Assembly (NCBI GenBank): GCA_050122475.1
Contig: JASFIV010000002.1
Location: 129 to 64,128 of the forward strand
Source of the DNA: Desulfobacterales bacterium
Lineage (GTDB): Bacteria > Desulfobacterota > Desulfobacteria > Desulfobacterales > JAHEIW01
Reading direction: 5' to 3'
Length of the DNA: 64,000 nucleotides
Part shown: positions 1,894 to 17,589 of the stretch, in pieces
Layout: each line of letters opens with the position of its first letter
Numbering within the stretch: position 1 is the stretch's first letter
Program-made: the position numbers and the translations under genes
Notes under the pieces: generated by a model
Told to the model about the DNA's origin: nothing
The model's database searches: none
The model's input: only the letters and a program-made list of their open reading frames with translations

Positions 1894-3933
1894 ATGAGTT
1901 CAGAAAACTTTTCTTCCCATACATTTCAAAGCTCTCAAAAATATTCTGATAACTCCGTCGTTTTTGATGGTGAGCGTTCTTCCTGGCAAAAGTATCTTGA
2001 GTTATCGCTTGCCAAACGCTACGAGCCGGATACTGTGGTGAGTGTAAAACCCATATCGGAATCAGATGGTTTTGAATTTAGTGCTTTAAATACGAATTCA
2101 AGTTCAGAGAAGCTGGTCCGTTTTTTAAATGACGGATTTACCCTTTTTTTAAAAAAGCTAAAGGAATACGAAACTGCCGCAGCTATTATTATAAGAGAGG
2201 TTTTTGCCAATTGGGCTAATGCGCTCGTTCCCGTTCAAATAAGGTGCAGTCATCATCTGCCAGCAGATTCAACAAGAGAGATTTTCCTGGATGACGACCT
2301 CAACATTAAAGAAGTATCTATCGTTCTGAATACCGATCTCATTAAAAGTGTATTCAAAGCGTATGAAAAAGTGTCTGATGGCAGAGAAGATGAACGGCTG
2401 GGGATTATGTGGGGCATCATCAAACCATTGCTGCATGAACTTGGGCATAGTAATTTGCCAAGGGACAGATTTTTTGAAGAAATCCATCAGGTATGGTGTG
2501 ATTGCGTGGCAATGAGAAATATTTTTTTTAAGAGCAAAAGGCAGAACGGTTGTCTTGTGCCCAATAAAGCAGGCAAAACATACATTAAATTTTATATAGA
2601 AAGAATGCTTCACAAAGGAATAAAGGTATCGAGAGACGAGATTTTTAGCCAACCGCTTTTCAAAATGCTGAACCATCTGCACCGTCTTGTCGGCGAAGAT
2701 ATGTTAAAAAAGCACAATGAGATAAAATTGCTAAAATTTGATGACCTTGCCGCCTCTGCAAAAGTGATTGTTCGAGGGTACCTTGACGATGAATACCTGA
2801 GGCCTTCCCTGGCACAAATTATGTCCAAAATACCTGAAGCTTACCAGCCCATGAAAATTACCATCAAAAAGAAGGGCGTCGAAACACCGCCTCCTAAAGT
2901 CGGGCGCTATGGAATCGAAGATGAAGAGGATCTTTCCGCATGGAATAAGGTGGCAGATAAATTCAAAAAGATTGGGTTAGTCATTGTCAGTCAGTTAGGT
3001 ATCGGAGAATTCGGTCGGGTGTATGAGGCCATAAATCTGATAAATCCAGGCTGGCCGGAAAGAGTAGCCGTCAAAGTCGATCGTATCTACAAAAAAAGAA
3101 AGAAGGAAGCCATACAGGTTGAAGATGTCATGTTACAATTATCACACGATTTGAGTAATTCTCCGCATGTGATCAGTATTTATGATGCGGGTTTGTTATC
3201 AAAAAAATACACCTACCATGTTTTACAGCTCGTTGCTGAGGGAGAAACCCTTGATGAGCTTATGGGGATCGGGGGAACAGAACCCACCAGCCGACCCACC
3301 AGTTTTGGCGAGGGAAACTCGCTTCAAAAACTCAGAGAGAAGTTTTTAAAACCGATCGGCCAACGGTCAAAACGAAAAAACCATCGCTTCTCAAGACCCC
3401 TGACACTCAATGAAACCATTGATATCATGGTGAGCATCCTCTTGTGGGTCGAGAAAGTTCACCGTTTAGGATATGTGATTAACGACGTCAAAACAGGTAA
3501 CGTCATGATGAATTGCCGTGGACAGATTAAGGGAATAGATTTGGACTTTTATCAAAGGTCTCCGTCTTTACCACAAGCCTTTATGCAGGATTTCTTCTTG
3601 CTCTCATGGGTATGTCTTCTCTTAATTATAAATGCGCCACGCAAAGATCCCTTGCCTTCAGAATCATTGAAAGATGACTTTGGAATTGCACTGCAAAAAG
3701 GAGCAGATTCCTTAAAAGATGCCTTGTCAGAGGAATGGAAATTTGTGGATTTATCAAGAGAGGATGCAGAAATGTTTCTCGATTGCTTTCTCGATATTAT
3801 TTTTCGTTCGCGCGTCAATACCTACGGAAAAAATCCAGATTTGTTCGAACAGGACATTAATAGACTCATCCATCTTAAACGGCTTTTTTTTGAACGCGAG
3901 ATTGTATTGACCGCGCCCAAATTGTACCATTAA
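1894..3933 (+). CDS. Hypothetical 679-aa fusion protein: N-terminal region with an HExxH motif, C-terminal divergent protein-kinase-like domain
   Basis: HELGH at aa 181-185 (nt 2434-2448). Kinase-like motifs: LGIGEFGRV (aa 368-376), VAVK (K394), catalytic-loop-like INDVKTGN (D531) and IDLDF (aa 548-552) about 18-20 aa later. Hand-sampled lines look clearly more AT-rich than the flanking genes. Confidence 0.7.
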   Translation: MSSENFSSHTFQSSQKYSDNSVVFDGERSSWQKYLELSLAKRYEPDTVVSVKPISESDGFEFSALNTNSSSEKLVRFLNDGFTLFLKKLKEYETAAAIIIREVFANWANALVPVQIRCSHHLPADSTREIFLDDDLNIKEVSIVLNTDLIKSVFKAYEKVSDGREDERLGIMWGIIKPLLHELGHSNLPRDRFFEEIHQVWCDCVAMRNIFFKSKRQNGCLVPNKAGKTYIKFYIERMLHKGIKVSRDEIFSQPLFKMLNHLHRLVGEDMLKKHNEIKLLKFDDLAASAKVIVRGYLDDEYLRPSLAQIMSKIPEAYQPMKITIKKKGVETPPPKVGRYGIEDEEDLSAWNKVADKFKKIGLVIVSQLGIGEFGRVYEAINLINPGWPERVAVKVDRIYKKRKKEAIQVEDVMLQLSHDLSNSPHVISIYDAGLLSKKYTYHVLQLVAEGETLDELMGIGGTEPTSRPTSFGEGNSLQKLREKFLKPIGQRSKRKNHRFSRPLTLNETIDIMVSILLWVEKVHRLGYVINDVKTGNVMMNCRGQIKGIDLDFYQRSPSLPQAFMQDFFLLSWVCLLLIINAPRKDPLPSESLKDDFGIALQKGADSLKDALSEEWKFVDLSREDAEMFLDCFLDIIFRSRVNTYGKNPDLFEQDINRLIHLKRLFFEREIVLTAPKLYH

Positions 3934-3982
3934 TCCCTTATGTCTTGTAATCCCATTACCGGATTTAAGAAAGGATTGAGTC

Positions 3983-4276
3983 ATGCCGCGCATGCCAATT
4001 GTGTCTACTGAATCAAACACTTCGATTTGCCTGCCGAACAGTTTGCTTCCCACTTTTTATATGGAGGATTATACTATATTGGGGCTTCGGGTTGGAAATT
4101 TGGGTGCAGCGGTCCGGTTACTCGAAAAAAACGGCATCGCGCTGCTGAAAAATGCGGGATACATTGAATTGTCCGTGGAACAAAAAGATCAAATTCTGCA
4201 TATCGTCCAACTGCTGAGAGCAAATGATGTTTCATGTGATATCGCCGATATTGTAGAGCAGGTATATCAGGGATGA
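3983..4276 (+). CDS. Small hypothetical protein, possibly ACT-like fold
   Basis: 97-aa ORF 49 nt downstream of the kinase-like gene on the same strand, with a weak AAGGA upstream. The YTILGLRVGNLGAAVRLLEKNGI...IELSV pattern resembles a beta-alpha-beta ACT unit. The start could instead be ATG 4061. Confidence 0.4.
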   Translation: MPRMPIVSTESNTSICLPNSLLPTFYMEDYTILGLRVGNLGAAVRLLEKNGIALLKNAGYIELSVEQKDQILHIVQLLRANDVSCDIADIVEQVYQG

Positions 4277-4392
4277 TAGGCCTCTACCTGCCGGTACGGT
4301 GGGTAGGCTAAACCATGGCGCAAGTTGTCGGCCCGACAACGCTCTCAGCAATGGTGATTACTTGGGTGTCGTACGATTTAAAGCCAAAGGTC

Positions 4393-5481
4393 TCATTTCC
4401 TATAGGATCTGTAATCCGTATACCCCTGAGCTCCTGGTGTGTACCACAAGGACATATCTTCAAATGGCGCAAGGGGCCAATTACTCTTTAAACGCTCTGG
4501 TAGGTCGGGATTGGTGATGAAAGGACGGCCGAAGGCTGCCAGATCCGCATGACCTGCTTTGAGTCTCTCTTCTGCTGTTTTCTTTGTATAGCCGCAATTG
4601 CCCATGATAATTCCGTCATATTCGGCCCGAAATTCAGCCAGCGTCATCGGTTCACCTTGATCATGAAAGCCGAAGGCAAGCCCATCCATGATGTGAACAT
4701 ATGCCAGATTTAATGTATCGAGTTCTTTTATGGTGTAGAGAAATATTTCTCGAAAATCAGGGCTGCCCATGTCATTGAATACGCCGTTGGGAGAAAGTCG
4801 GACACCCACTCGCTTTGACGGCCAAACCTCTAAAACAGCTGCCATCACTTCTTTTAAAAAACGATATTTATTCTTCAGGCTTCCGCCGTAATGATCCGTC
4901 CTTAAATTTGTTTTTGAGTCAAGAAATTGATTGATCAGATAGCCGTTGGCACTATGCACTTCGACGCCGCTGAAACCTGCTTCTTTGGCATTTGCAGCAG
5001 CGGTGCGATAATCGTTCACAGTGGCCTCGATGTCATCAACTGTCATAGCCCGTGGGGTTTCGTAGTCTTTTTTTCCAAGCGGCGTGTGAATCTGGTCACC
5101 CTTAAGTTTAACTGCTGAGGCTGAAACCGGCAGTTCTCCATTGTGAAAATCGCTGTGTGACGCCCTGCCACAATGCCACAGTTGCAGAAAGATAGGCGTG
5201 CCGGTGGGTTTCAGCTTTTGGGTGACGATTCGCCACCCTTTCACCATTTTATCGGTGTAGATGCCGGGTGAGTCTACCCAGCCGTTGCCTTGGGCGGAAA
5301 CAACCGTTGCCTCGGTAATCAGCAGACCGGCTGAAGCACGTTGGAAATAATATTCGGCCATTAGATCATTCGCAATGCGCTTCGCACCTGCACGCCCCCT
5401 GGTCATGGGTGCCAGAACGATTCTGTTTTTAAGTTCTAAGTCTCCCATCTGCAATGGTTCAAACAGCTTATAGTCCGTCAT
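4393..5481 (-). CDS. NADH:flavin oxidoreductase, Old Yellow Enzyme family (NemA / 12-oxophytodienoate reductase-like)
   Basis: 362-aa ORF with LAPMTRGRA near the N-terminus and HSANGYLINQFLDSKTNLRTDHYGGS, both typical of OYE-family FMN enzymes. Confidence 0.88.
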   Translation of the reverse strand: MTDYKLFEPLQMGDLELKNRIVLAPMTRGRAGAKRIANDLMAEYYFQRASAGLLITEATVVSAQGNGWVDSPGIYTDKMVKGWRIVTQKLKPTGTPIFLQLWHCGRASHSDFHNGELPVSASAVKLKGDQIHTPLGKKDYETPRAMTVDDIEATVNDYRTAAANAKEAGFSGVEVHSANGYLINQFLDSKTNLRTDHYGGSLKNKYRFLKEVMAAVLEVWPSKRVGVRLSPNGVFNDMGSPDFREIFLYTIKELDTLNLAYVHIMDGLAFGFHDQGEPMTLAEFRAEYDGIIMGNCGYTKKTAEERLKAGHADLAAFGRPFITNPDLPERLKSNWPLAPFEDMSLWYTPGAQGYTDYRSYRK

Positions 5482-5973
5482 GACGATCTCCTGTTGTCAA
5501 ATTTATGATGAAATAAAAAAGGAATTTTTTATAATAATCATCATTTGACTTTTGTCTGCTGCCAAATCGATTTTTCACATTGAAATGTGGTGATATGTGA
5601 TCACCATTGGGGGGGATTCTTGGATAATTACTGTAACCCGTTGTGAAAATTAACGGATTGCGGGACAGACCGATCTGACAACCGTGCTCAAACATAAAAG
5701 GATTTAATGTAACTAATGCGCAATCCCCCTTTATTCCCTCCCATTTAATTTCGTTCCTGCGCACAACTCTCATAGTATATTGATATTATTTATAATTTTT
5801 AACTTTATTTGCATTCGAAATTAGACTGTGATAAACTTTTTATAGAAATAATTACAACAAATTCGATAGCCTACGCCAGATTTCAAGCCTGCCCGTCTGA
5901 TTCCTTCTTCGGCAGATTTGAACAACCACCGATCATCTATCATCGGTTTTAGAGCAGATAGATAAGGACATCT

Positions 5974-7602
5974 GTGTTTATTCGCGGTCTGAGAACAAAA
6001 ATTGCATTCAATCTTGCCGTCCTATTTCTGGTGGCCATGTTGTTGATCAACATTGTGGCGATGATGACCGCCAAGCGTGACATTATCCGCAAGGAGGTTT
6101 CCAGAGGCCATTTTATGGTATCCACGCTCTCGGCTGATCTGTTGGATATTCTGAATTTGAGTACGCAATCAGTCCCCCAGGTTTCGCGGGCACAGGTGTT
6201 TGGCCTATTAGCCGAAGGCGGTGTTTCCGGTGCCATGGTTGTTGGCAAAAATAAGGAACGAGTGGCTTACGGCCAAATCTCGACGGCACTGCAAAATGAG
6301 TTGCTGAAACACGCCCGCAGCACCATGCAATCCCAGGAGCGCGCCACCCATTTTTTCGGGACCTCCTGGGGCGTATTCTGGAAACACCACCGTGATTTAA
6401 TCATTTCATCGCCGTTGCAGCAAAACGGACACATTGTTGCCGGCGTCAGCATTGTTTTGCCGCTTGAGGGAATTTATACAACCCTGCGACGATCTCAAAA
6501 AATGCTGTTTGTGTATTTGTTCTTAAATACCATTATATTGACCTTTATTGGCATTTATCGGCTCTCAAAGGTTTATTTTTTGCCTTTGGCAAGATTGGCG
6601 AGCCGGGCTGAAGACTATCATGAAGATGATGATATGCTCTTTTCCGTGCGCAAAGAAGATAATGAGTTGCACAAGTTATCGGCTTCCTTAAACAGTATGC
6701 TGCGACGCATATCTGCTGATAAAGAAAAGCTGCGTTCAACCGTCAATTCTCTTGAGCTCGCCAATCTGGAATTGAAAAAGGCCCAGGAAGAAATCATTCG
6801 GGCCGAAAAATTGGCTTCCGTGGGGCGATTGTCGGCCGGTATAGCCCACGAAATCGGCAATCCGATCGGCATTGTCATGGGATATCTCGACCTGCTCAAA
6901 CAAAAAGACACACCTGACAGCGAAAAAGCGGAGTATATTCAGCGCACAGAAGACGAAATCGAGCGCATCAACACCATCATCCGTCAGCTTTTAGAAATTT
7001 CACGACCGTCAAAGGCCGGCTTAAAGGTCGTAGCGGTCCATGATTTAATCGACGATATTGCCCAGGTTCTCAATGTACAGCCGTTGATGTCCAATATTGA
7101 ACTCGAATGCATTCTGGAAGCCCAAAACGACACCGTATTGGCCGATGCAAATCAGCTGCGACAGGTTTTTTTAAATTTGATTATCAATGCCGCTGATGCC
7201 ATCTCTTCAGCCGGCAACGCTGCGAATGGCAAGCTGGTGATCAAGAGCGGTCTGGTCGCTGAAAAACAAGACCCATCTGGGAAGTTGAAACAGTTTTTAA
7301 AAATTACCTTCATGGATAACGGTCCCGGAATATCTGAAGAAAATATCGGGAATATCTTTGACCCATTTTACACCACCAAAGAACCCGGTAAAGGAACTGG
7401 CCTGGGGCTTTCGGTTAGTTTTATGATTGTTCAAGGATTTGGCGGCGAGATGACCGTACATAGCGAAAAAGGCGAGGGCACCAGCTTGACGATATTACTG
7501 CCGGTAATTGAAGGCGAAGCCACCATGAACCGAAATCAAGATTTATCCTTAACCCCTTCGCTGCTGTCAACTGGCATAGATGGGCAGCCATTGGAACCAT
7601 AA
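5974..7602 (+). CDS. Sensor histidine kinase (membrane, HAMP-like linker, HisKA plus HATPase_c)
   Basis: H-box SAGIAHEIGNPIG, N-box LNLIINAADA, G1 DNGPGI, G2 GKGTGLGLS, and N-terminal hydrophobic segments. GTG start with AAGGA 5 nt upstream. Confidence 0.9.
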   Translation: MFIRGLRTKIAFNLAVLFLVAMLLINIVAMMTAKRDIIRKEVSRGHFMVSTLSADLLDILNLSTQSVPQVSRAQVFGLLAEGGVSGAMVVGKNKERVAYGQISTALQNELLKHARSTMQSQERATHFFGTSWGVFWKHHRDLIISSPLQQNGHIVAGVSIVLPLEGIYTTLRRSQKMLFVYLFLNTIILTFIGIYRLSKVYFLPLARLASRAEDYHEDDDMLFSVRKEDNELHKLSASLNSMLRRISADKEKLRSTVNSLELANLELKKAQEEIIRAEKLASVGRLSAGIAHEIGNPIGIVMGYLDLLKQKDTPDSEKAEYIQRTEDEIERINTIIRQLLEISRPSKAGLKVVAVHDLIDDIAQVLNVQPLMSNIELECILEAQNDTVLADANQLRQVFLNLIINAADAISSAGNAANGKLVIKSGLVAEKQDPSGKLKQFLKITFMDNGPGISEENIGNIFDPFYTTKEPGKGTGLGLSVSFMIVQGFGGEMTVHSEKGEGTSLTILLPVIEGEATMNRNQDLSLTPSLLSTGIDGQPLEP

Positions 7603-7683
7603 AGCCTTTTTAGGGCTGCAATTCAAAAATGAAACGGGATGTGAGATAGCTGCCTATAGCTGCTTTACAAGGAAACAAAACAA

Positions 7684-9072
7684 ATGACATCGAAAATGCC
7701 GGAAAAACGACTTCTCATTATCGACGACGAAGAAAACATGCGGCACATGCTTTCAAAGGTGCTCACCAAAGCCGGTTATACAATCGAGACCGCTTCCAAT
7801 GGTCATGAGGGCCTCAAAATGACCGACGGCAACGCATATGATTTTATCCTCTGTGATATTAAGATGCCCAATATGAATGGTATGGATTTTTTAAAAGCCG
7901 CACGCGATAAAATCAAATCCACTACGGTTATTATGATGTCAGCCTACGGCACCATCGACACCGCCATAGCAGCGATGAAGCTGGGTGCCTATGATTATAT
8001 TTCGAAACCCTTCAAAACCGATGAAGTTTATCTAACCCTGAAAAAGGCAGAAGAACGAGAAAGCCTCAGACAGGAAAATCAACAGCTCAAAGAACATATT
8101 AAAAAAATCGAAGGTAACTATAATTTCGGAAACCTGGTAGCTAAAAGCGAGGCCATGCAGAAAGTGTTTCGGGTGGCGGCCAAGGCGGCACAATATAAGA
8201 CCACCGTACTGATACTGGGCGATAGTGGAACCGGCAAGGAATTAGTTGCGCGGGCGATCCACAATGAAGGGGATCGTTCAAGCATGCCGCTGGTCCCGGT
8301 AAATTGCGGCGGCATACCCGAAACGCTACTGGAAAGTGAATTGTTCGGCTATAAAAAGGGCGCTTTCACCGGTGCCGATAAAAATAAAAAGGGATTGTTC
8401 CAGGAAGCCCATGGCGGTACAATTTTTCTGGATGAAATCGGTGAACTACCGCTGGCACTGCAGGTGAAGCTATTGAGGGTTTTGCAGGAAAACGAAGTCA
8501 GAATGATCGGAGATTCAAAGTCGACGCAAATTGACGTGCGCGTCATAGCAGCCACCTCAAGAAATCTTGATGAAGATGTCAAAAAGAGCGCCTTTAGAGA
8601 AGATCTTTATTATCGTTTAAATGTTCTGTCGATAAAAATTCCGCCATTGCGGGAGAGGGCTGAGGACATCCCGTTGCTGTGCGATCATTTTATACAGCGG
8701 TTTAACCGCAGCCTGAATAAAGAAATAACCAGCATTGCACCTGCTGCCATGTCGCGTCTGCTGGAATACCCTTGGCCCGGCAATGTCAGAGAGCTAGAAA
8801 ATGCCATCGAACGGGCGCTGGTGCTGGTTGAAGGCCATGTGCTTTTGCCCGAGCATTTTCCTTCGGATCTCGGGCAGCAAATGGGGGGAAATACCTCTGA
8901 TTTGCTTTTTGATGGGTTTTCTCTAAAAGCAGCTCAGAAAATCATGGAAGAAAAGCTGATTACCAGAGCTCTCAAAGAGACGGGAGGCAATCGCACTCAG
9001 GCAGCCCGTCTGCTGGAGATTAGCCATCCGTCGTTGCTTACCAAGATCAAATTATACAATATCGACCTATAA
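7684..9072 (+). CDS. Sigma54-dependent response regulator (NtrC/AtoC family)
   Basis: Receiver domain (DIKMPNMNG), AAA+ Walker A GDSGTGKE, sigma54-contact GAFTGA motif, and a C-terminal Fis-type HTH. It lies directly downstream of the histidine kinase. Confidence 0.93.
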   Translation: MTSKMPEKRLLIIDDEENMRHMLSKVLTKAGYTIETASNGHEGLKMTDGNAYDFILCDIKMPNMNGMDFLKAARDKIKSTTVIMMSAYGTIDTAIAAMKLGAYDYISKPFKTDEVYLTLKKAEERESLRQENQQLKEHIKKIEGNYNFGNLVAKSEAMQKVFRVAAKAAQYKTTVLILGDSGTGKELVARAIHNEGDRSSMPLVPVNCGGIPETLLESELFGYKKGAFTGADKNKKGLFQEAHGGTIFLDEIGELPLALQVKLLRVLQENEVRMIGDSKSTQIDVRVIAATSRNLDEDVKKSAFREDLYYRLNVLSIKIPPLRERAEDIPLLCDHFIQRFNRSLNKEITSIAPAAMSRLLEYPWPGNVRELENAIERALVLVEGHVLLPEHFPSDLGQQMGGNTSDLLFDGFSLKAAQKIMEEKLITRALKETGGNRTQAARLLEISHPSLLTKIKLYNIDL

Positions 9073-15610: not shown

Positions 15611-15700
15611 AAGAACCGATAAAGTCAGGTGATTGCTGAATTTCCGATTGTTTTTTTCCTTATGAATGATTTATTGAAGGCCAAAAAGATTTTGCAGAAA

Positions 15701-16423
15701 ATGAGATTGCTGTCAGTGCTGTTGATTCTGGGAGCGCTGTCAAGCTGTATCAATTCAGGATCAAACTCCGGCAATGAACCCTTAATTCGTGTTCGTGATA
15801 GAGTGCTTACGGTGTTGGAGTTCAATGAGACATTTGAATTTATCCAATCGGCTCATCCTCAAAACTTGAAGGATCATCCCGAGGATTTAAGAAATGCTCA
15901 ACGACGCCTTTTAAACCAGCTGACTGTAGAGATGATTATCCTTGAAAGGGCTGAAGAGCTGGGACTTTCTATTTCGGATGAAGAGATCAATAAGGCTGTA
16001 AAAGACATAAAAAGCGATTATCCTGAAGATACATTCGAAAAAACGTTGCTCAAAACGGCTGTTTCATATGAACTATGGGAGGCCCGTTTAAAAAATAGAA
16101 TGCTGATGCAAAAAGTGGTCGATACCGAACTTAAAGATAAAATTGTTATCACACCTGAAGATATCGCTGACTACTATGAACGCAACATAAAAACGCGAGC
16201 TCTGGAATCCGAAACTGCAGGTTCAAAAGATGATATCAATGAAAGGATCATCAAATATCTGCGTCGTGAAAAGGCGGAGAAGGCATATAAAATTTGGATA
16301 AATAATCTTAAGAACAATTACAGCATTGAGATCGACAGTGCACAGTGGGAAAAAATTAGCGGTTCTCCTTATCGTGCTGATCAGAATCTGAATGATCTAG
16401 ATTTGACTCAAAAGCCTGAGTGA
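15701..16423 (+). CDS. SurA N-terminal-domain-like periplasmic chaperone lipoprotein
   Basis: ORF 15629-16423. A lipoprotein-type signal MRLLSVLLILGALSSC starts at ATG 15701, though the start could be 15629 or 15662. The remainder resembles the SurA_N chaperone domain and has no rotamase domain. Confidence 0.65.
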   Translation: MRLLSVLLILGALSSCINSGSNSGNEPLIRVRDRVLTVLEFNETFEFIQSAHPQNLKDHPEDLRNAQRRLLNQLTVEMIILERAEELGLSISDEEINKAVKDIKSDYPEDTFEKTLLKTAVSYELWEARLKNRMLMQKVVDTELKDKIVITPEDIADYYERNIKTRALESETAGSKDDINERIIKYLRREKAEKAYKIWINNLKNNYSIEIDSAQWEKISGSPYRADQNLNDLDLTQKPE

Positions 16424-16584: not shown

Positions 16585-17589
16585 ATGAAACGGTTTCTAT
16601 CAAAATTGAATTTATATTTAAATCTTTTGTGCTTGCTGGCCCTGAATGGTAGTTTGCTGATAGGTGACGTGCAAGCAGATTCTCCCGTAGTCGTCGATCG
16701 CATTGTCGCAGTTGTCAATGATGAAATCATAACCCTCTATGATCTCAATAAGGAATTGAAACCGTATGAGGAAAATATCAAGGCGCTCGGATACGATGCC
16801 GATAAAACGCGTGAAACTCTTTTTAAACTGCGCAGTGATCTGCTCAACAAGCTTGTCGACAGAAAATTGACAGATCAGCAAATCAAGAAAAATAATATCA
16901 ATGTCAGCAGCCAAGAGATCGATAGGGCGATAGAGCGAATTAAAGAAACGCGTTCCTATACGGATGAAGATTTAAGAGCAGGATTGGCCAAACAGGGTTT
17001 AACTATAGAGGAGTACCGTGAAAGCTTAAAGCAACAATTGTTAAGAAGTAACTTGGTCAATCGCGAGATTAAATCAAAAATCGTCATTACCAATGAAGAA
17101 ATCGAAGAATACTACAATGCTCACCGGGAGAAATATGCCGGTAAAACAAAATACCACATCTGGAATATAGCAATCCGGTTTTCGCAGTTTGCCGATGACA
17201 CCGAAAAACAGATGGCTTATCAAAAAATGGAAAGTGTTCTAGCGCAATTAAAGCAAGGACGCTCGTTTGAATCCATTATTAGTGAAAATCTTAACGCTCC
17301 GGGGATGCCTCAAGGAGCGGATTTGGGATTATATCAACTGGACGAGCTGTCGGCTGAGTTACAGGGCGCTGTCAGATTTATGTCAGCTGGTGAATACAGT
17401 AACATTATAAGTTTTGGCAACGGATATCAAATTATCTTTGTCGAAGAACTCCTCTCGACTGATGCCAAGGCCATTGCTGACGTAAAAAGTGAGATTCAGG
17501 ATACTTTGTATAATGAAGCGATTAACAATCGCTACAATTCCTGGTTGACTGAGCTTCGTGAGCGATCGCATATCAAGATTATTCAATAG
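16585..17589 (+). CDS. surA: Peptidyl-prolyl cis-trans isomerase, SurA-type (SurA_N plus parvulin domain)
   Basis: 334 aa with a signal peptide, an N-terminal chaperone region (IVAVVNDEIITLYDL) and a C-terminal PpiC/parvulin-like region. Confidence 0.8.
   Translation: MKRFLSKLNLYLNLLCLLALNGSLLIGDVQADSPVVVDRIVAVVNDEIITLYDLNKELKPYEENIKALGYDADKTRETLFKLRSDLLNKLVDRKLTDQQIKKNNINVSSQEIDRAIERIKETRSYTDEDLRAGLAKQGLTIEEYRESLKQQLLRSNLVNREIKSKIVITNEEIEEYYNAHREKYAGKTKYHIWNIAIRFSQFADDTEKQMAYQKMESVLAQLKQGRSFESIISENLNAPGMPQGADLGLYQLDELSAELQGAVRFMSAGEYSNIISFGNGYQIIFVEELLSTDAKAIADVKSEIQDTLYNEAINNRYNSWLTELRERSHIKIIQ

Follow-up and report, generated by a model that had tools for sequence, protein, structure and literature searches.

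In a 64,000-nucleotide (nt) stretch of a Desulfobacterales genome (GenBank assembly GCA_050122475.1, contig JASFIV010000002.1, positions 129 to 64,128; the whole stretch is called the window below), one gene encodes a 679-amino-acid (aa) protein that joins a Hanks-type kinase domain to an N-terminal domain of no classified family. Relatives of this protein are found in six phyla, and in five of these the gene lies beside pstSCAB, the genes of the high-affinity phosphate transporter Pst. What is new is the combination of a Hanks-type kinase, a domain outside any classification, and a link to phosphate uptake across phyla that had not been described; we found no description of the kinase family in the literature, and its members are annotated at source as “hypothetical protein” or, generically, as “serine/threonine protein kinase.” We hold with moderate confidence that the protein belongs to an uncharacterized family of signaling kinases of phosphate homeostasis equipped with a new N-terminal sensor domain. 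The gene and the two parts of its product are laid out as follows.

1894..3933, forward strand: open reading frame (ORF) of 679 aa, orphan N-terminal domain plus Hanks-type kinase domain (ORF list; full-length model)
1894..2928, forward strand: N-terminal domain, aa 1–345, an alpha/beta plus helical fold without known match (alignment A3; separate model)
2929..3930, forward strand: protein-kinase domain plus C-terminal helical extension, aa 346–679 (Pfam Pkinase above gathering score; Foldseek match to PknB 5u94)

Phosphate Uptake Genes Accompany the Kinase Gene across Phyla

Where else does this protein occur, and which genes keep it company? The window protein is 100% identical to PVJ41_13145 (P0001 in our set), a protein from a Desulfobacterales metagenome-assembled genome (MAG). 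A search of 5.8 billion protein clusters returned 87 homologs, nearly all of them 650–700 aa long, with identities from 100% down to 33%, and a scan with one genome per species recovered 80 loci from Desulfobacterota, Verrucomicrobiota, Kiritimatiellota, Planctomycetota, Myxococcota, and Hydrogenedentota. To characterize the neighborhoods, ORFs were called in 88 loci, clustered all against all, and ranked by the independent kinase groups (75% identity) beside which they occurred. Antisense artifacts aside, the highest-ranked clusters comprised an ABC ATPase, a pair of permeases, and a binding protein; by NCBIfam equivalog cut-offs these neighbors are PstB, PstA, PstC, and PstS, and PhoU also passed its cut-off.

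In 50 of 60 informative loci, corresponding to 22 of the 31 groups (75% identity), a pst gene was found within 10 kb of the kinase gene; in 30 of the 60 the distance was at most 500 nt. For orientation, our own rough estimate, which is not a computed value, is that a gene would lie close to a pst operon by chance in about 1% of cases. The link was universal in Myxococcota (28/28), Kiritimatiellota (3/3), and Hydrogenedentota (2/2), frequent in Planctomycetota (4/5) and Verrucomicrobiota (13/20), and absent from the informative loci of Desulfobacterota (0/2). In the five linked phyla the gene has pstSCAB as its neighbor, frequently occupies or adjoins the usual phoU slot, and is near polyphosphate kinases. 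Four kinase/pst arrangements were found across these phyla:

Arrangement 1: kinase gene convergent with pstB, gaps of 1–50 nt
Arrangement 2: phoU on the minus strand, kinase gene on the plus strand, pstBACS on the minus strand
Arrangement 3: co-directional pstSCAB followed by the kinase gene, gaps of 58–159 nt
Arrangement 4: kinase gene followed by pstSCAB

The polyphosphate kinases PPK1 and PPK2 and a phosphate-selective porin recur near the kinase genes; beyond these, PhoU, and the pst set, no other conserved neighbor was found, upstream positions included. Adjacency that outlasts rearrangement across phyla is a classical signature of functional coupling, and the conserved neighborhood suggests that the family is functionally associated with the Pst/Pho system.

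Two local layouts deserve mention in their own right. In six Verrucomicrobiota loci (L002, L003, L024, L030, L049, and L079), the usual pstSCAB-phoU unit is interrupted between pstB and phoU by the kinase gene, which is on the opposite strand; a phmmer search for PhoU, made with a single query and hence of limited sensitivity, had hits in six Verrucomicrobiota loci only. In the Myxococcota loci L064, L068, and L069, two opposed pst operons stand on either side of a phosphate-selective porin gene that directly adjoins the kinase gene.

An Atypical Kinase with an Intact Catalytic Core

The C-terminal half of the window protein is a Hanks-type (eukaryote-like) kinase; from its motifs, an earlier note on this DNA had described a divergent protein-kinase-like domain here. 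The 679-aa protein scores 37.2 bits against Pfam PF00069 (Pkinase), above the cut-off of 31.7, and carries the following landmarks.

2998..3015, forward strand: Gly-rich loop GIGEFG, with G369, G371, and G374 invariant (alignments)
3073..3075, forward strand: K394, the beta-3 (VAIK) lysine, invariant and followed by invariant D396 and R397 (alignments)
3265..3405, forward strand: insertion between the kinase lobes, aa 458–504, net charge +8, disordered in the model (predicted local distance difference test, pLDDT; charge count)
3481..3501, forward strand: catalytic loop NDVKTGN, a non-RD form of HRDxKxxN in which N530, D531, K533, and N536 are invariant (alignments)
3538..3546, forward strand: DLD, the DFG equivalent, in which D549 and D551 are invariant; the activation segment after it is very short and lacks APE (alignments; model)

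Family alignments were made with 25 and with 56 homologs. In the larger, which reaches down to 33% identity, the three loop glycines, K394, the four catalytic-loop residues, and both DLD aspartates are all invariant, so the conservation of K394, D531, and D549/D551 that the earlier note had proposed to check holds throughout. The spacings D531–N536 (5) and D531–D549 (18) equal those of D166, N171, and D184 in PKA, and D549 is therefore the equivalent of the DFG aspartate. The motifs that the earlier note had quoted—LLHELGHSN at aa 179–187, LGIGEFGRV, VAVK (K394), INDVKTGN (D531/K533/N536), and IDLDF (D549/D551)—are all present. So is its basic insertion RSKRKNHRFSR between the lobes, which lies inside a segment disordered in the model (pLDDT <50 at 466–493), and it was likewise right that the domain has no APE motif.

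An AlphaFold2 model of the full-length protein, built from the 56-sequence alignment, reached a pLDDT of 85 and a predicted template modeling score (pTM) of 0.87, with disorder confined to the N-terminus and to residues 466–493 within the basic insert. Foldseek gave 1,952 PDB hits for this model at E ≤ 0.001; all 50 matches listed were protein kinases, and the best was PknB (5u94; E 6e-8, TM score 0.70 over the target). By sequence the domain is very divergent: among solved chains TTBK1 comes closest, at E 2e-4. About 10–15 residues lead from DLD to helix F. Because it lacks a canonical APE-ended activation segment, the protein is an atypical member of the kinase superfamily. No membrane segment was found in the 679-aa protein, whose sole hydrophobic stretch is kinase helix F. 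A lysine in the catalytic loop, here K533, is typical of Ser/Thr protein kinases. From these residues and the model, we predict that the kinase is probably catalytically active, of Ser/Thr type, and a soluble cytoplasmic protein.

PknB of Mycobacterium tuberculosis (5u94, 1mru) illustrates both the kinship and the distance. The two share the kinase fold, the Gly loop, the beta-3 lysine, the catalytic Asp, Lys, and Asn, and the Mg-binding Asp. The window protein, however, is only ~15% identical to PknB. Where HRD and DFG would stand it has a non-RD “IND” and DLD, its activation segment is minimal and lacks APE, it contains a basic disordered insert of 45 aa, and in place of the transmembrane and PASTA parts of PknB it carries the 345-aa N-terminal orphan domain.

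An N-Terminal Domain without Known Relatives

The N-terminal domain is conserved across its full length (alignment A3), with invariant residues that include R42, R128, E129, W173, D191, R294, D298, Y301, and R303. No model of Pfam, NCBIfam, or PADLOC run on the whole 679-aa protein covers residues 1–345; Pfam searches at E ≤ 1, run separately for 22 N-terminal sequences, turned up no recurring family and no peptidase family; and a profile search of PDB sequences with the domain returned only chance antibody matches at E > 0.7. Foldseek with the full-length model gave kinases only, for which reason aa 1–345 were modeled separately (pLDDT 84, pTM 0.78). This second model had no match in PDB or BFVD at E ≤ 0.001, and no significant zincin match. 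An exhaustive HMMER profile search across 1.84 billion representatives yielded only 79 proteins, all with the same two-domain architecture or fragments of it, the exception being P0198, a metagenomic protein of 1,756 aa in which a further N-terminal extension of 990 aa without Pfam match precedes the orphan domain and the kinase. The N-terminal domain is thus rare, unclassified, and obligatorily coupled to the kinase, with a fold absent from Pfam and PDB.

The C-terminal ~70 residues of P0198 repeat a segment near residue 280. The sub-threshold Foldseek lists for the separate model (PDB and BFVD) were led by proteins of nucleotidyltransferase fold, namely 3c18, ANT(4′), and phage nucleotidyltransferases, at E 0.03–0.14 and TM scores of 0.12–0.24; none of these matches is significant, and the family does not have the carboxylate triad of these proteins. 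We assign no fold to the domain, and the sub-threshold matches stand as an unexplained hint.

A Candidate Kinase Branch of Phosphate Signaling

How might such a protein serve phosphate homeostasis? Because the two halves always co-occur and the model packs them rigidly against each other, the N-terminal domain most likely serves the kinase as a built-in module for sensing or docking. In the reading we favor, this domain would read phosphate status, either by touching the complex of Pst transporter and PhoU or by using its conserved Arg, Tyr, and Asp residues to bind a phosphorylated metabolite; the kinase would then phosphorylate a regulator or a component of the transporter; and in Desulfobacterales the kinase gene would have left the pst locus. 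A more specific version, which we put forward only tentatively and regard as rather less likely, makes the protein a phosphate-status sensor kinase whose new sensor fold either docks on PstB/PhoU or has a phosphate-rich compound as its ligand, and which relays the status of Pst by Ser/Thr phosphorylation. On this version, PVC-group bacteria, Myxococcota, and Desulfobacterota would possess a Hanks-kinase Pho branch running parallel to PhoU-PhoR or replacing it. As a further variation, the Desulfobacterales clade may have turned one helix of the orphan domain into a genuine HExxH metal site.

Known systems offer partial precedents. PknD of M. tuberculosis is a membrane receptor kinase with an extracellular sensor. 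Its gene, pknD, stands in a predicted operon with pstS2 in a phosphate-transport cluster (PMC3322341). As a Hanks-type kinase gene among pst genes, it comes closest as a precedent for coupling a Ser/Thr kinase to Pst; PknD, however, has no homolog of the orphan N-terminal domain and comes from an unrelated lineage, so that the analogy is one of context only. In pneumococcus, StkP/PhpP mutants show altered PstSCAB abundance (PMC7011611). PhoU is the counterpart by genomic place, since in several phyla the kinase gene lies beside pstB at the usual phoU site, and a comparable role in relaying transporter status may apply to the kinase; PhoU itself differs in being a small helical protein without enzymatic activity, related to the kinase in neither sequence nor fold. 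The phosphate-gene neighborhood also bears on the earlier note's guess at a signaling, effector, or defense-type module: signaling is plausible, whereas the effector and defense parts of the guess are unsupported.

Several observations weigh against a phosphate-signaling role. Most of the pst adjacencies are convergent, so that kinase and transporter genes are not co-transcribed in those loci, and within a phylum the adjacency could be partly inherited synteny. The sensing role of the N-terminal domain is purely our inference, and the very short activation segment without APE makes a non-protein substrate possible. The window's own lineage adds further points. The 64-kb window contains no pst, pho, or ppk genes; most Desulfobacterales-type loci (L001, L013, L094, L095, the contig of P0053, and the synteny group of the window) lack phosphorus genes; both informative Desulfobacterota loci lack pst; and the window protein is only 33–39% identical to the pst-linked members, which makes transfer of the pathway uncertain.

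Phosphorus Genes and a Possible Change of Role in Desulfobacterales

Does the association with phosphorus extend to the window's own clade? It persists there weakly. Beside a kinase 78% identical to that of the window (L012), PPK1 lies divergently at a distance of 246 nt and is followed by a CHAD protein; beside another, 76% identical (L093), there are a PhnD-type phosphonate importer, two phosphodiesterases, and PhnH. A close relative of the latter (L014) has an importer resembling PhnS2/PhnU2 (2-aminoethylphosphonate), which falls below the family cut-offs and is a hint only. In L012, the genes at 3702–8306, divergent from the kinase gene, encode PPK1, the CHAD-domain protein, and a ParA-like ATPase, and may form a polyphosphate-granule module.

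These loci bear on an alternative that we consider unlikely, if still of some weight: that in Desulfobacterales the protein is a general-purpose signaling kinase re-purposed away from phosphate, with HExxH marking a new ligand or metal site. The absence of pst from the window and from most loci of this type, the low identity to pst-linked members, a clade-specific and highly conserved HELGH...EE segment, and a conserved neighborhood with an AtoS/AtoC-like sigma-54 two-component pair are all in its favor. The Desulfobacterales proteins nevertheless keep every family-invariant residue of both domains, and phosphorus genes do stand beside the kinase gene in L012 (PPK1-CHAD), L093 (phosphonate), and, below cut-off, L014 (PhnS2-like).

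Could the kinase instead act on a small molecule? An enzyme of phosphorus metabolism that phosphorylates a non-protein substrate, with the N-terminal domain forming the substrate pocket, would account for the very short activation segment with neither APE nor P+1 loop, the non-RD catalytic loop, a kinase domain so divergent that its best solved sequence match stands at E 2e-4, a large extra domain packed rigidly on the kinase (pTM 0.87), and neighbors that are transport and polyphosphate enzymes and not regulators. Yet the protein keeps K533, its best structural matches are bona fide protein kinases, and the gene contexts offer no candidate substrate. To our knowledge, the catalytic-loop lysine is absent from small-molecule kinases of the APH, choline-kinase, and Rio types. 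We regard such an enzyme as improbable.

The HExxH Motif Is Confined to One Clade

The earlier note had seen a fusion of a metallopeptidase-like domain to a kinase, on the strength of the HExxH motif of zincin metallopeptidases. Two motifs lie close together at this site.

2434..2448, forward strand: HELGH, aa 181–185, a clade-specific motif (motif counts in homologs)
2458..2472, forward strand: PRDRF, aa 189–193, a family-wide motif beside HExxH (alignments A1 and A2)

HExxH is present in 51 of 53 Desulfobacterales-type proteins, the remaining two having HQxxH. Among proteins of other clades it is found in about 2 of 52, where SQxxY is the commonest alternative and where ~50 of the 52 carry S/T/L/A, Q/N/S/G, and Y/F/L at the HExxH positions. 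Of the neighboring PRDRF, D191 is invariant, and P189, R190, R192, and F193 are at least 90% conserved. HExxH conservation among homologs, which the earlier note had set out as a check, thus fails outside the Desulfobacterales-type clade, and the sequence comparison indicates that HExxH is a clade-specific motif within the orphan domain and no zincin active site.

A zincin-type protease that binds zinc through HExxH and is fused to a kinase is accordingly very improbable, and at the family level this explanation is already largely refuted. It can claim a HELGH on or at the end of a predicted helix, the near-universal presence of that motif in one clade with the acidic E195/E196 ~10 residues further on, and a SprT-like viral model among the sub-threshold Foldseek matches (E 0.18). 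Set against these are the other residues found at the HExxH positions outside the clade, the two HQxxH members within it, and an HExxR at the site in P0198; the 22 family members without a peptidase Pfam match at E ≤ 1, and the domain without a PDB sequence match or a significant Foldseek match; and the family-invariant D191 within PRDRF, which is not a zincin signature. The likeness to zincins amounts to five residues in one clade; the difference is that the family at large does not conserve it, and that no family, profile, or fold match goes with it. The proposed metallopeptidase–kinase fusion does not stand.

Base Composition and Synteny Give No Support for a Recently Acquired Island

Was the kinase gene recently acquired, as its base composition had suggested? 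The 679-aa ORF has a GC content of 41.0% (41.6% at third codon positions, GC3), compared with 47.6% for the whole window and 50.6% for the adjacent gene for a pyridoxal phosphate (PLP) enzyme. Against the 36 other large ORFs (mean 48.8%, standard deviation 3.6%) its z value is −2.2, and GC this low or lower occurs in only 2% of sliding windows of the same length. The low GC of what the earlier note had called an AT-rich islet is thus real, but it is modest, and the PLP-enzyme gene stands at 50.6% and not at the ~60% counted by hand. The kinase ORF ranks third-lowest in GC among the 38 large ORFs of the window. The two below it, at 15629–16423 (39.0%) and 16585–17589 (40.5%), are tandem SurA-like chaperone/peptidyl-prolyl isomerase genes that sit downstream of mfd in a core block with the order mfd, surA, rodZ, mgtE, recO. 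Because the lowest-GC ORFs are housekeeping surA-like genes, low GC in this window is by itself no mark of foreign DNA. Nor is the kinase gene the only low-GC coding region, and its value is within the gene-to-gene range of the 64 kb compared.

Gene order points the same way. The succession of PLP enzyme, kinase, 97-aa gene, OYE, histidine kinase, and sigma-54 regulator is kept in three sister MAGs (L010, L011, and L015), in which the neighbors are 84–92% identical to those of the window and the kinase 82–84%. No mobility genes (integrase or transposase) and no defense genes were found beside the kinase gene in the ORF list and the Pfam scan. With a GC deviation that is modest and common to core genes, with synteny kept, and with no mobility genes, neither the horizontal acquisition that the earlier note had suggested nor a recent acquisition of the kinase gene is supported.

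The named kinase models that score best on the C-terminal domain are those of antiphage kinases. NCBIfam MAD6 matches it at E 2.7e-7, with 29.5 bits against a cut-off of 460, and PADLOC returns mad6 at E 1e-13 together with several PD-T4-6 models, all covering the generic kinase core only. A horizontally acquired, AT-rich defense or effector island, such as a MADS/PD-T4-6-like antiphage kinase with a small partner, could appeal to these matches and to the GC of the gene, but it is the least credible explanation we considered, given that the matches are confined to the kinase core and far under cut-off, that there are no defense, integrase, or transposase neighbors, that the gene order is kept in sister MAGs with neighbors as diverged as the kinase, that housekeeping surA-like genes are lower in GC, that the family-wide neighbors are pst and not defense genes, and that the small ORF is an independent gene. 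Like the peptidase fusion, it is poorly supported.

The Small Downstream ORF and Other Features of the Locus

The kinase ORF is followed, after a gap of 49 nt, by a second ORF; both are at the coordinates that the earlier note had given (ORF list).

3969..3975, forward strand: GAAAGGA, ribosome-binding site of the small ORF (conserved in MAG loci L010, L011, and L015)
3983..4276, forward strand: small ORF, 97 aa, a conserved protein of fixed length (ORF list; 94 homolog clusters)

Its product has 94 homolog clusters of fixed length, none with a precomputed Pfam domain, and among the related MAG loci its substitutions are biased to third codon positions. The gene lies downstream of the kinase only in L010, L011, L015, and L016, the closest clade; homologs at 55–67% identity occur in unrelated contexts with no kinase nearby. 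We therefore rejected the 97-aa protein as a partner of the kinase, and the co-occurrence that had been envisaged for the two is limited to the closest clade. By these sequence criteria, the ORF is a real gene, independent of the kinase system. Its description as ACT-like found no backing either, as no ACT family in Pfam matched the protein even at E ≤ 1. The 97-aa family is seemingly confined to Desulfobacterales-type metagenomes. In two distant loci (L090 5001–5294 and L091 5001–5291) the gene lies near genes for an ACT-HAD (SerB-like) protein, an alanine racemase, and response regulators. A 97-aa gene in L093 proved unrelated to that of the window.

Farther downstream, at window positions 5974–9072 and 1.7 kb from the kinase gene, are an AtoS/AtoC-like histidine kinase and a sigma-54-dependent response regulator. 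The pair is syntenic with the kinase gene in the closest MAGs. Promoter and terminator scans around the kinase gene found nothing above chance.

Implications for Phosphorus Acquisition

Bacterial phosphate sensing is known almost entirely through PhoR/PhoB with PstSCAB-PhoU. If the role proposed here is true, the family would bring a new level of regulation to phosphorus acquisition and to the storage of polyphosphate, together with a new protein domain, in five pst-linked phyla that are poorly studied and are important in soils, sediments, and waters. For annotation, it supplies a testable role for about 100 “hypothetical proteins” and removes a tempting but wrong label of metallopeptidase-kinase. 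The copy in the window lacks a telling pst context of its own; the family-level association still gives a concrete, testable hypothesis of phosphate signaling for this Desulfobacterales protein and its relatives.

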